Shown in pieces: positions 13,430 through 17,914 of a DNA stretch of 19,578 bases (position 1 is its first letter; every line of letters begins with the position of its first letter). A model generated the notes under the pieces. It saw nothing but the letters and a program-made list of their open reading frames with translations, did not search any database and was not told the DNA's origin. This DNA is from a virus. Position numbers and translations under genes: made by a program. The stretch is from the IMG/VR virus record IMGVR_UViG_3300047620_000017. The stretch is one strand, 5' to 3'.

Positions 13430-15577
13430 TCAGAGGACGATCGGGGGTGCGGGGGTCTCGGCGGGGTGCTCGTGGGCGTACAGCGCGACGGCGGCCGCAA
13501 TGAGGGCGGGCACGGGCCGCGGGGAGTCCCGGGAGAACCGCCGGACGCCGTTGCTGCTGCGAACCTCGACGCTCCCCGCCTGCGTGCGGAGTTCATCGGT
13601 TCCGTCGTGGATCAGGGTCTCATCCACGCCCGCGTACGCGAGGACGGCCTCGCACCCCTGCCCGTACTCGCTCATGGTCAGCGTCCGGACCTCGTGTCCG
13701 AGCTCCTCGAGTCGTGCGACGAAGCGGCCCACGGGGCCGGCGGAGTCCGCGACGTAGGTGGGATCGAGTCCGAGCTGAGCGGGCAGCTCCCGCGTGACGT
13801 AGGGGATCAGCCACTCCGTGCCGGGGGCCTGGTGGACGATGCGTATGCAGGGCCGCTCGGTTCCCTCATCGATCCAGGCTGCAACCACGGCGGCAGCGGA
13901 GTTGCCGGGAGCGACCTCGATCGCGTAGGTGACCTCAGACGGGTCCGGTGCGAGGACCTCGATCCCCAGATCGTCCCATAGCGCCAGGTCGAACAGGGTG
14001 CCGTCCGAGGCCACGATCCGATTGCAGTACGCGCGGAGCAGAGTCGCCCAGCGCCCGGGGTCGTCCTTTGCCCGGGCTGCACGCGCGGCAAGGTCCTCGA
14101 CAGCGATTGTGTTCCCCACGGCGGGGTGGAACTTCGTCCAGGTGTCGGGGTCCAGCGGGTCCATGCCGTCTGGCATCGAGTACTCGATGTAGCACAGGTC
14201 CGGATCGGTGTTGGCGCGGCCACGGTCCACGTACTCGTTCATCCAGTCCGAGGAGACGGTGCCCATCGTGGATATGAGCCATGTCTGCGCCCGGGATCCG
14301 AGAGTGATCTGGCCGGGCTCGACGGCACCAAGGAGAGCATCCCCCAACTCCTTCGAGTAGTGCCAAATCTCGTCCATCGTGACGAGGTGCGGATGCTCGC
14401 CGTGGAGCGCGGAGAAGGTAGGCGAGAACCGGGTGATGTGAGTGCCCGACATCTCGGCCACACGGACACCCTCGGCGCCGTTCGAGCGGGTGGACGTGAA
14501 CAGCAACCGCATGAGCGATTCCTCGACCCTCTCAATCAGGTCCATCATCCGCTTCCGTGCATCCTGCCCGGACTGCGCGGTGTACCAGCACGAGGCCGGC
14601 TCCCCTCTGGTGAGTGCTCGATGAACCTGTAGCGGGATCGTCAGGTCAGTTTTCCCGGATTGCCTCGGAACAGTGACCAGCACGGTCGTGTAGTGATAGC
14701 AGCGCCGACCCCAGGCGTCGAGACGATACTCGGTCGCCACGTCGAGCGCCTTCCGCTGCCACGGCATGAGGTGGCGGCCCATCGCCTTCGCCACGGCGGC
14801 AATTTCGTGGCCCTCGGTGAGGTACGACGGGTCCCGCTCCGGGTGGTGAGCGGCCGGCGGGAGCACGGTGAAGATCGATGGCTCCGTGTCCATCGCGGAG
14901 GTCAGGAGCGCGTCGATGTCCCCGGCGTCGGCGTCGGTCTCAGGCCGGGGAAGGCGCTCAATGATGGTCTGCATGACCGAGGCGAGCAGCGCGAACCCCG
15001 ACGGGGCGCCGACGTGCAGCGCACGGTCGAGGTCGCGAGCTGCCATGAGCGCGAGCTCCTCGTGCGCGGCCCACTGCCGGGTGGAGAGCCCGGCCTCGTG
15101 GCGGGCGCGGAGTGTGAGACGCACACCTGCTTCCTGGACCCCGGTGTCATCGGTGGGGGGATCCGCAATGGGCAGCGCGTCCTCGGTCGCTCCATCGTGT
15201 TCCTCGGCCGCGGTGCCGAGGAGCACACCGATGTAGGCGGCGAGCATGCCCCGTCCCTGAGTGCTCGGTGACGGAAGCGCCTCGAGGGCCTCGGACATGG
15301 CCTGCAGGAGCTTCGCGCGGCCAGACGGTCGGCCGTGGGTGACTGTCGCGTCGAGCTTCGCGGCGTCGGCGAGGACGAGAGCGACGAGTGCCGAGTCCAG
15401 GGGGTCGAGCAGTCCCGCATCCCGGCGAGCTTGGACGGTGATCTCAGTCGCCAGCTCCAACTCGTGCGTGCTCCGTGGGCGTGGGTCGAGTCCGGGCAGC
15501 ATCAGCACGGATCCGCCCGGATCCGACGTGATTGGACGGTCGGATCCGGGCGTTTTTTCGGCGCGATTCTCGGTCAT
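13430..15577 (-). CDS. Terminase: large-subunit ATPase/nuclease (about aa 250-715) preceded by a ~250-aa N-terminal extension with two homologous modules
   Basis: Walker A VPRQSGKT and Walker B-like HLVTMDEIW, with a nuclease-type C-terminal half. The frame is open from ATG 15577 (ATGA overlap with HNH). An alternative start is ATG 15505. Confidence 0.88.
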   Translation of the reverse strand: MTENRAEKTPGSDRPITSDPGGSVLMLPGLDPRPRSTHELELATEITVQARRDAGLLDPLDSALVALVLADAAKLDATVTHGRPSGRAKLLQAMSEALEALPSPSTQGRGMLAAYIGVLLGTAAEEHDGATEDALPIADPPTDDTGVQEAGVRLTLRARHEAGLSTRQWAAHEELALMAARDLDRALHVGAPSGFALLASVMQTIIERLPRPETDADAGDIDALLTSAMDTEPSIFTVLPPAAHHPERDPSYLTEGHEIAAVAKAMGRHLMPWQRKALDVATEYRLDAWGRRCYHYTTVLVTVPRQSGKTDLTIPLQVHRALTRGEPASCWYTAQSGQDARKRMMDLIERVEESLMRLLFTSTRSNGAEGVRVAEMSGTHITRFSPTFSALHGEHPHLVTMDEIWHYSKELGDALLGAVEPGQITLGSRAQTWLISTMGTVSSDWMNEYVDRGRANTDPDLCYIEYSMPDGMDPLDPDTWTKFHPAVGNTIAVEDLAARAARAKDDPGRWATLLRAYCNRIVASDGTLFDLALWDDLGIEVLAPDPSEVTYAIEVAPGNSAAAVVAAWIDEGTERPCIRIVHQAPGTEWLIPYVTRELPAQLGLDPTYVADSAGPVGRFVARLEELGHEVRTLTMSEYGQGCEAVLAYAGVDETLIHDGTDELRTQAGSVEVRSSNGVRRFSRDSPRPVPALIAAAVALYAHEHPAETPAPPIVL
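15515..15558 (+). terminator. Intrinsic-terminator-like hairpin on the plus (antisense) strand inside the terminase 5' end
   Basis: GCCCGGATCCGAC (15515-15527) and GTCGGATCCGGGC (15539-15551) are perfect reverse complements (13 bp). The loop is 11 nt and is followed by G + TTTTTT (15553-15558). Confidence 0.5.
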
Positions 15578-15924
15578 CCGCTCTCACTGTTTTTTTCTGA
15601 GCGCCCGGGGGAGGGAAAAACATGGGGCGCGGGGTGTTCTGGCGTTCGCGGCGCGAAAAAACCATCTCCATTCACGAGCGCGACTCGACCGTGACGCTGC
15701 CCGTGGTGACCGAAGTTGCAGTTAGGGTGCGCGAGACCGAGATTGTCGTAACCAGTCACTGATCCTCCTTGCTTTCTTCCTCGCTTGTGCTCGATCGTCG
15801 CAATGCGAATGCTCGCGATCCGTGTTCCGCACACGCAACAGATCAGTCCGTCGCGAGCCAGCAGCACTTGCTTGATTGACTGCCGTTTCTTGTACGGAAT
15901 GCGGTTCCACGAGTTGCGACTCAC
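15574..15924 (-). CDS. HNH endonuclease, 116 aa
   Basis: CCVCG...ATIEHKRGRKQGG...NLGLAHPNCN matches the HNH beta-beta-alpha metal motif. GTGA overlap upstream. Lies immediately before the terminase, as in HNH-dependent cos phages. The last ~35 codons have low GC3. Confidence 0.85.
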   Translation of the reverse strand: MSRNSWNRIPYKKRQSIKQVLLARDGLICCVCGTRIASIRIATIEHKRGRKQGGSVTGYDNLGLAHPNCNFGHHGQRHGRVALVNGDGFFAPRTPEHPAPHVFPSPGRSEKNSESG

Positions 15925-16157
15925 GAGCGCTTCTCCTTCCTGGTGCGCGTGGGTTGCTGCACGTGGGCGTCGATGTACTCGACCACGTCACGGGGCCGGT
16001 ACCGGACGGTGGCACCGAGGCGGACAACCGGGGGGCCTCCACCACGGGACCGGAGCTGGCGGAGGGCATCGGGGGTCATGGCGAGCATGCCGGCCACCTC
16101 GGTATGGGTGAGCAGGCGGGGCAGAGTCGGCCGCGGTGCAGGCTGCTGAGCGGTCAT
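15921..16157 (-). CDS. Excisionase-family (HTH_17/MerR-like) DNA-binding protein, 78 aa
   Basis: LLTHTEVAGMLAMTPDALRQLRSRGGGPPVVRLGATVRYRPRDVVEYIDAH is the classic excisionase-type winged-HTH pattern. ATGA overlap upstream. Confidence 0.8.
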   Translation of the reverse strand: MTAQQPAPRPTLPRLLTHTEVAGMLAMTPDALRQLRSRGGGPPVVRLGATVRYRPRDVVEYIDAHVQQPTRTRKEKRS

Positions 16158-16270
16158 CGGAGTACCGTCCGGCAGCGCTCGCATCGGATCGGTCCGGGAT
16201 ACATGATGCTGGAGTGACGACGGTAGTTAGAGCGATGGAGTCCGATACGGCAGAGCAGGCGCCCGATCAT
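16154..16270 (-). CDS. Small Cys/His protein, 38 aa
   Basis: Below the ORF-track cutoff. MIGRLLCRIGLHRSNYRRHSSIMYPGPIRCERCRTVLR. ATGA overlaps at both ends link it to neighbouring genes. Confidence 0.45.
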   Translation of the reverse strand: MIGRLLCRIGLHRSNYRRHSSIMYPGPIRCERCRTVLR

Positions 16271-17599: not shown

Positions 17600-17914
17600 T
17601 CAACGGGTCAGATACCTACCCCCCCCCCCGCCGTAGTAGGTGTCGTCCGTCCATGCGGCCTCGAACTGGGCCACGGTCACGCGCGGGTGGGTCTCCCACC
17701 ACGTGCGGAGTTCCTCGGAGGCGTAGCGGAGTGCTCGGGCCTCGGGGCCGATGAACAGGCTGTAGGCCTCCACGCCGGCGCTGGCAGCGTCCTTGGTGAG
17801 CAGCACGCCCTTGCACGCGACGTGAGCCTGCTGGTACGCGGATTCCCGGTACAGCTCGAATTCATCTCGCATGGAGCGCCAGCGGTGCAGGGCCTCGGTC
17901 ATGATCACGCTCAC
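17600..17914 (-). CDS. Hypothetical early protein, 104 aa (or 100 aa from ATG 17902)
   Basis: GTGA overlap upstream. Well-formed protein sequence (TEALHRWRSMRDEFELYRESAYQQAHVACKGVLL...RTWWETHPRVTVAQFEAAW). Contains a G11 run near its 3' end. Confidence 0.75.
   Translation of the reverse strand: MSVIMTEALHRWRSMRDEFELYRESAYQQAHVACKGVLLTKDAASAGVEAYSLFIGPEARALRYASEELRTWWETHPRVTVAQFEAAWTDDTYYGGGGGRYLTR
17619..17629. repeat. Homopolymer C11 (G11 on the coding strand)
   Basis: 11 consecutive C at 17619-17629. On the minus strand they encode part of GGGGG, 6 codons before the stop of the 104-aa gene. Confidence 0.95.

Follow-up and report, generated by a model that had tools for sequence, protein, structure and literature searches.

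The 19,578-nucleotide stretch of viral DNA analysed here (IMG/VR record IMGVR_UViG_3300047620_000017, hereafter the window) carries a terminase gene that probably encodes a terminase holoenzyme protomer in a single chain, in which two modules resembling the small terminase subunit (TerS), module 1 and module 2, are followed by the large terminase subunit (TerL). The grounds for this reading are an internal repeat, the homology of both repeat copies to stand-alone proteins encoded in the TerS position of related phages, the conservation of the fused frame and the selection acting on it, and the synteny of the gene with an HNH endonuclease gene and a cos-like element. The components are of known kinds, and what seems to be new is the joining of two diverged small-subunit copies to TerL; no natural TerS-TerL fusion was described in the part of the literature that was surveyed, and the two-copy architecture is also absent from a 2022 review of TerS. 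DNA recognition by small terminases, the handover of DNA to the motor and the stoichiometry involved are still debated, with free TerS rings and transient TerS:TerL complexes that are hard to trap (PMC9611059).

The window has a GC content of ~68%, and the terminase gene, whose parts are listed in Table 1, encodes in its C-terminal portion what is by sequence an HK97-type large terminase with a Walker A ATPase and a C-terminal nuclease domain. The match to phrog_9 (terminase large subunit) covers aa 237–704 at E 1e-48 and the Walker A motif VPRQSGKT stands at aa 303–310 (nt 14648–14671); the scores for PF03354 and PF20441 fall slightly under the cut-offs (20.0 vs 23.7 and 19.7 vs 24 bits). An earlier note, made from the DNA letters without database searches, had described an N-terminal extension of about 250 aa ahead of this portion. 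The extension is present, but its length is ~232 aa, since the TerL homologues of relatives begin at a position that matches ~aa 233. The same note had recognised two homologous modules in the extension and had aligned aa 46–104 (nt 15266–15442) with aa 154–212 (nt 14942–15118), counting 23 of 59 identities. This ungapped count is exact and the repeat is real, but its extent had been drawn too short. The true copies span aa 21–106 and aa 129–214 and align without gaps with 31 of 86 positions identical (BLASTP E 1e-8); their local alignment score is 106, whereas 1000 shuffles gave 33.5 ± 6.7 with a maximum of 69 (z 10.8). At the DNA level the two share only 47% identity, which makes the duplication old. 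Each module proved to be a full copy of a protein that, in relatives, has a gene of its own at the small-terminase position. It was also rightly noted that a separate small terminase gene is missing: none of the window's other open reading frames (ORFs) is convincing as one, and the HTH_17 ORF at 15921–16184 is excisionase-like (phrog_66, E 2e-8) with a weak match to the TerS family phrog_57 (E 0.006).

With the 249-aa extension as query, phmmer searched 1.84 billion representatives exhaustively and returned 26 matches. One is a ~708-aa cluster with the same architecture, three are fragments of that cluster, truncated or frameshifted, and 22 are stand-alone proteins of 98–147 aa. Half of the stand-alone proteins match module 1 (query ~24–127) and half module 2 (query ~138–234), and the matches of the latter kind, over query 138–233, have E values from 1e-8 to 1e-4. 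When the modules and the free proteins are aligned (alignment A2), both modules span the free proteins end to end and share the motifs of the family, which are LPG(L/F/M) close to the N-terminus, HAG..LA..AARDxDxS, GxPSGRAxLL and LPxPE, together with a short tail helix. A hidden Markov model (HMM) of the family scores module 1 at E 2e-28 and module 2 at E 7e-28, values that are partly circular because the model was built from A2, which includes both modules. Two database entries are artefactual short forms of the fused gene and not split genes: P0018 is a frameshifted copy, and P0019 ends in LSLIHI, a translated sequencing-adapter tail.

The family is linked to annotated small terminases by five routes. 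Module 1 (aa 26–107) has matches to two PHROG families, phrog_15169, 'terminase small subunit' (E 3e-8), and phrog_9475, of unknown function (E 5e-8). The gp1 proteins of the Gordonia phages Schiebs and Coeur, both annotated 'terminase small subunit', match phrog_15169 at E 4e-44 and 9e-55, respectively, and hhalign of the A2 family profile with Schiebs gp1 gave a probability of 93% and E 3e-7. The best two viral structural matches in BFVD, with the Foldseek probability in brackets, were the annotated TerS of Arthrobacter phage Atraxa (1.00) and Rhodococcus phage RRH1 (0.96). Weak matches to PF23931 (Terminase_6, small subunit) occur in 15 of 77 family members, the best at E 0.001, with no other family recurring, and a neighbour cluster in the ESM Atlas that is named 'putative terminase small subunit' bears PF23931. 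Maggie gp1 (L001:43-348), the first gene at the left end of the Arthrobacter cluster AN genomes, matches phrog_9475 at E 2e-57. The protein is annotated as hypothetical and AN phages are listed with a single 'terminase', and on sequence grounds cluster AN gp1 is a clear member of the family of annotated TerS from Gordonia CW/DM phages, RRH1 and Atraxa. The fused small-subunit function that the earlier note had suggested is thus supported by phrog_15169, by Schiebs gp1 and by the BFVD matches, as well as by the conserved fused frame considered below. Profile methods are needed to see these relationships: 50,697 phage records yielded no tblastn match, either to the 249-aa extension or to a stand-alone family member, likely because of the low-complexity filter together with divergence. 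NCBIfam holds no model for the module family, and no match was obtained for it in a profile search of PDB sequences or, with the terminase N-terminus as query, in a metagenome scan.

For comparison of gene order, 108 related loci were gathered from IMG/VR, GTDB genomes and GenBank phages and scored by the A2 HMM and the TerL core. Related genomes had been proposed as a place to look for a separate gene at this position, and ~90 of 109 loci have one: a single module gene, in another frame, lies directly upstream of a TerL of 465–500 aa and usually overlaps it by a few to ~30 nt. About 12 loci are without a module, several since the contig begins at TerL. The only loci with both modules in frame with TerL are the window, L010 (a Micrococcus metagenome-assembled genome, MAG), L011 (Brevibacterium permense), L012/L029 (Brachybacterium massiliense) and L013 (an Actinomycetes MAG), along with the divergent L055, so that the close fused form is present in four other genomes from three families. 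Full-length fused homologues amount to 14 database proteins of 689–714 aa, with 49–75% identity in the extension. A fusion of a single module was encountered in none of the searches (phmmer, the scored loci, and a hunt for longer fused forms), the last of which returned only the known two-module clade. In L055 (L055:3497-5533), an IMG/VR phage with a TerL of 39% identity, an HNH gene is followed by a two-module TerL whose modules are recognisable only via the family profile (E 4e-9 and 2e-6; hhalign 90%). The nearest unfused relative is L015, a prophage of Arthrobacter sp. UM1, in which the TGA of the small gene overlaps the GTG of TerL (GTGA; L015:4330-4350) and the tail of the small gene together with the TerL N-terminus is collinear with aa ~215–250 of the window protein. 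No more than a small indel would accordingly be required for the two genes to become one, and the GTGA overlap likely represents the ancestral state of the fusion junction.

The alignment of the 14 fused homologues (A1) reveals many invariant residues in both modules, for example L27 P28 G29 L30, K74 L75 D76 and G82 R83 S85 G86 R87 A88 in module 1 and H172 E173, D182 D184, S193 G194 and R208–P212 in module 2, and a variable stretch at aa ~105–135. Nei-Gojobori estimates of the ratio of non-synonymous to synonymous substitution rates (dN/dS) from five genomes, given in Table 1, are rough because synonymous sites are near saturation, and they indicate purifying selection on both module copies and not on the linker. 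The pattern of GC content over the three codon positions (GC1/GC2/GC3) that marks coding sequence begins at ~codon 16, with no such signature in codons 1–15. By these measures the fused frame is conserved and translated. The explanation that the fusion is an artefact, produced by a sequencing frameshift or misassembly, or that module 1 is a pseudogene remnant in decay that happens to be read through in a high-GC frame, is accordingly very hard to sustain. Long chance open frames do occur in high-GC DNA and some database relatives are frameshifted or truncated (P0018, P0019), but the same in-frame architecture is found in independent assemblies from four genera and in the 14 proteins, and both modules combine dN/dS below 1 with a coding GC3 pattern; conserved frame, dN/dS and GC3 lead us essentially to reject it.

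The long ORF could also be a precursor or a dual-product gene, from which linker cleavage or internal starts give free TerS-like and TerL proteins. The linkers at aa 105–135 and 215–232 are variable, unconstrained and predicted to be disordered, as would suit such processing, and a public gene call of the same sequence, P0005 (20 member sequences), starts at M111 (15245–15247) and yields a 605-aa protein from which module 1 is removed. M111 and M229 are, however, not conserved in the 14 fused homologues, and no conserved Met or Val start is present at the TerL boundary. Module 1, which lies upstream of M111, is under purifying selection with at least 20 invariant residues, and both junctions are in frame across the whole clade, which would be needless if separate products were required. 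We consider processing or a second product improbable. Translation from M111 was rejected, and module conservation, dN/dS and the coding pattern imply that the P0005 start is wrong, probably through a gene-calling error. The leader shows neither a coding signature nor conservation, and translation may therefore begin at M1 or at M26 (MLPGL). All fused loci retain an ATG where M1 stands, 10–25 nt past a conserved CTCAGAAAAAAC motif. Within the first 25 codons, three CGGATCCG copies (GGATCCG x3) form a leader hairpin at 15505–15551 on the minus strand, which is specific to the window phage and not found in the four closest fused relatives.

The window phage is small, temperate and actinobacterial, and it encodes an integrase. 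An HNH endonuclease gene, the partner to be expected for a cos terminase of HK97 type, lies directly upstream of the terminase, as it does in relatives, and in Maggie it is gp26 at the right genome end; an excisionase-like HTH_17 gene precedes it. Between the HNH and terminase genes is a non-coding element with the layout ACACCCCGCGCC, a T-run followed by CCC, and CTCAGAAAAAA. It is conserved throughout the five fused loci and can still be made out in L055. In the linear Maggie genome (an Arthrobacter phage), its match is the junction formed when the right and left ends are joined, and the element is very probably a cos site. If so, the fused terminase would be the first gene and the HNH gene the last gene of the packaged chromosome, in an HK97-type arrangement. 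The HNH ORF extends ~27 codons (15574–15660, minus strand) beyond the point at which the HNH proteins of relatives end, just past a G-x-FF motif. This tail crosses the cos-like element to reach an ATGA overlap with the terminase ATG and is probably a chance open frame that is not coding.

Table 1. Features of the terminase locus in the window, with dN/dS estimates where made
Feature	Coordinates	Strand	dN/dS	Remarks
HNH endonuclease gene	15574..15924	-		PF01844 E 1.4e-5, above cut-off; PHROG HNH families match
Conserved non-coding element between HNH and terminase genes	15589..15641	-		Probable cos
Complete fused terminase ORF	13430..15577	-		715 aa: leader, module 1, linker, module 2, TerL
Variable N-terminal leader, aa 1–25	15503..15577	-	~0.7–0.95 (first 25 codons)	May be untranslated if the start is M26
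Module 1, aa 26–125	15203..15502	-	~0.5–0.6	TerS-like; LPGL and GRPSGRA kept, then LPxP and tail helix
Acidic variable linker between copies	15176..15202	-	~1.1–1.3 (aa 111–135)	In poorly conserved stretch ~aa 105–135
Module 2, aa 135–229	14891..15175	-	~0.4–0.5	TerS-like; AAHE..AARDLD and RLPRP kept; LPG changed to LPx, SGRA to SG(F/Y)A
TerL proper, aa 233–715	13433..14881	-	~0.3–0.4 (TerL core)	ATPase and nuclease domain; phrog_9

Structure prediction of monomers with AlphaFold2 (AF2) gave four helices for a single module (77 sequences; predicted local distance difference test score, pLDDT, 87) and, for the extension (17 sequences), a model with a mean pLDDT of 80 and a predicted template modelling score (pTM) of 0.71. 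In the latter, each module has three long helices, 15–23 residues in length, plus a tail helix; disorder is predicted for the linkers, with pLDDT ~50 in the stretch aa 111–135. Structure alignments of 85–125 residues at 2–3.6 Å cover helices from both modules, which implies that the model packs them into one bundle, and we infer that the two modules may form a single helical bundle with pseudo-dimer packing. Comparison with TerS folds, proposed in the earlier note, had a divided outcome: the BFVD matches are to annotated TerS, but no solved TerS fold stands above helical-bundle noise. Foldseek found no match to either model in the PDB at E <= 0.001, and VIA-align returned only generic helical bundles, at Z <= 9.5 for the two-module model and <= 7.1 for one module, with no solved TerS prominent among them.

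Canonical phage TerS has an N-terminal helix-turn-helix (HTH) domain and a helical oligomerisation core and forms a ring of 8–12 subunits. Family searches found no HTH or other DNA-binding domain in the modules, which is one of several observations that speak against a single-chain protomer. The HK97 TerS (8pop_A) came at rank 14, with Z 6.4 and a root-mean-square deviation of 3.1 over 69 residues, tied with dozens of unrelated helical proteins, and the pseudo-dimer packing derives from one AF2 model built on 17 sequences. Module 2 alone is without a match to any PHROG or Pfam family. The window protein scores 14–14.7 bits against PF23931, for which the cut-off is 27, and kinship with the Pfam family itself is therefore only a lead. 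The literature searched gave no experiment in which a member of the family bound packaging-site DNA or acted as TerS, and the TerS label in public records is annotation only. Neither the protein database nor IMG/VR yielded a relative of L055, which is represented by one metagenomic sequence, and proteolysis of the variable linkers may occur.

Some of these observations fit another explanation, in which the module family is a different packaging accessory, such as an adaptor between TerL and either the HNH nuclease or the portal; the fusion would then act only as a tether, and cos would be recognised by another protein, for example the HTH_17 protein. The absence of an HTH or DNA-binding signature, the fold searches without a specific match and the lack, in the literature searched, of an experimental basis for the TerS label all suit this explanation, as do the separation of gp1 and TerL by two small genes in cluster AN and the location of the HTH_17 protein, with its weak phrog_57 match, just upstream of the HNH gene. 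The family nevertheless occupies the classical TerS slot adjoining cos in ~90 loci, and the HTH_17 protein is far closer to excisionases, one of which is needed by the integrase of the phage. T4-type TerS is likewise without a canonical HTH (PMC9611059). An accessory role is hence rather unlikely, though it is the most serious competitor of the single-chain protomer, which we favour.

The history of the fusion can be followed in trees of both parts of the protein. In the TerL tree (94 distinct cores) the five close fused genes form one clade with support 99, whose sisters L015, L014 (Rothia) and L030 are unfused, and L055 is placed elsewhere. Constraining the six fused genes into one clade (IQ-TREE, 34 taxa) costs 101 log-likelihood units and has a p-value of 0.0002 in the approximately unbiased test (p-AU); the two-module fusion thus seems to have arisen twice independently, the second origin being represented by one metagenomic sequence. 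Module 1 and module 2 each form a monophyletic group in the module tree (support 95 and 100, respectively), with a longer stem on module 2. Measured by path, the stand-alone L015 protein is the closest to both, inside an unresolved polytomy. This topology fits a tandem duplication within the lineage and is no proof of it. The copies have kept complementary motifs, LPGL and GRPSGRA in module 1 and AAHE..AARDLD in module 2. Exactly two copies were joined to TerL in each of two, seemingly independent, lineages, and a one-copy fusion was found in none; the working unit of the family could be a dimer per TerL and not an autonomous 8–12-mer ring, a suggestion that we make tentatively and regard as doubtful.

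The single-chain protomer could have come about and could work as follows. The ancestor would have had a separate small-subunit gene for ~110–130 aa with a stop overlapping the TerL start; this gene would have been duplicated in tandem and both copies brought in frame with TerL. The copies would then have shared out the ancestral motifs between them and would pack as an intramolecular pseudo-dimer, in a bundle that does the job of the free small-subunit dimer of relatives. By binding DNA, the bundle may recognise the cos region immediately upstream of the gene and position or regulate TerL, along with the neighbouring HNH nuclease, for the cleavage of cos and for packaging, and the fused chain would presumably function with neither cleavage nor internal initiation. 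The TerS:TerL ratio would be fixed at 2:1 and the C-terminus of the TerS-like portion would adjoin the TerL N-terminus, as may be compared with the lambda protomer, gpA1:gpNu1_2 or TerL1:TerS2, and with the contacts between TerS C-terminus and TerL N-terminus that have been mapped in lambda and P22 (PMC9611059).

Were this and the tentative dimer reading correct, the gene would provide a natural single-chain TerS2-TerL enzyme, of which a pentameric motor would carry ten TerS modules, and a minimal terminase of fixed stoichiometry suited to resolving the handover of DNA from TerS to TerL. A natural chain with two TerS per TerL in a 19-kb phage, with a cos-like site next to it, would be simple to approach by biochemistry and cryo-electron microscopy. 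The analysis also offers a functional assignment for cluster AN gp1, from phages whose terminase was thought to be without a small subunit, and shows that one module is lost in the public 605-aa gene call for the fused protein. In another part of the window, the early-region ORF at 17600–17914 (minus strand, 104 aa) resembles phrog_12049, 'head morphogenesis' (E 2e-13), and head-protease families in their C-terminal part, a likeness that is unexpected for an early gene.

Among known systems, the lambda complex gpA1:gpNu1_2 resembles the proposed protomer in having two small subunits per large subunit and in cos-type packaging. Its subunits are separate polypeptides, however, gpNu1 has a winged HTH and no detectable sequence kinship to the modules, and lambda needs no HNH partner, whereas the system in the window has an adjacent HNH gene; the parallel is one of functional analogy and neither homology nor membership. 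HK97 (gp1 TerS nonamer, gp2 TerL, gp74 HNH) shares the type of TerL and an HNH gene, of the required type, adjoining cos across the genome ends, and its TerS is also short and mostly helical, but this TerS forms a free ring of nine subunits, carries an HTH at the N-terminus and gave no significant sequence or fold match to the modules. The closest likeness is to the small terminases of actinophages (Schiebs, Coeur, RRH1, Atraxa and cluster AN gp1), which belong to the same family with the same predicted four-helix module, have the motifs LPG, AARDxD, GxPSGRA and LPxPE in common, and lie at the same site, beside cos with a related HK97-type TerL downstream. They also come from the same lineage of small genomes, in which protease and capsid are fused and the opposite genome end carries an HNH gene. 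In those phages the small terminase is a free protein of ~100–150 aa, one per genome, whereas in the window two diverged tandem copies are fused to TerL.

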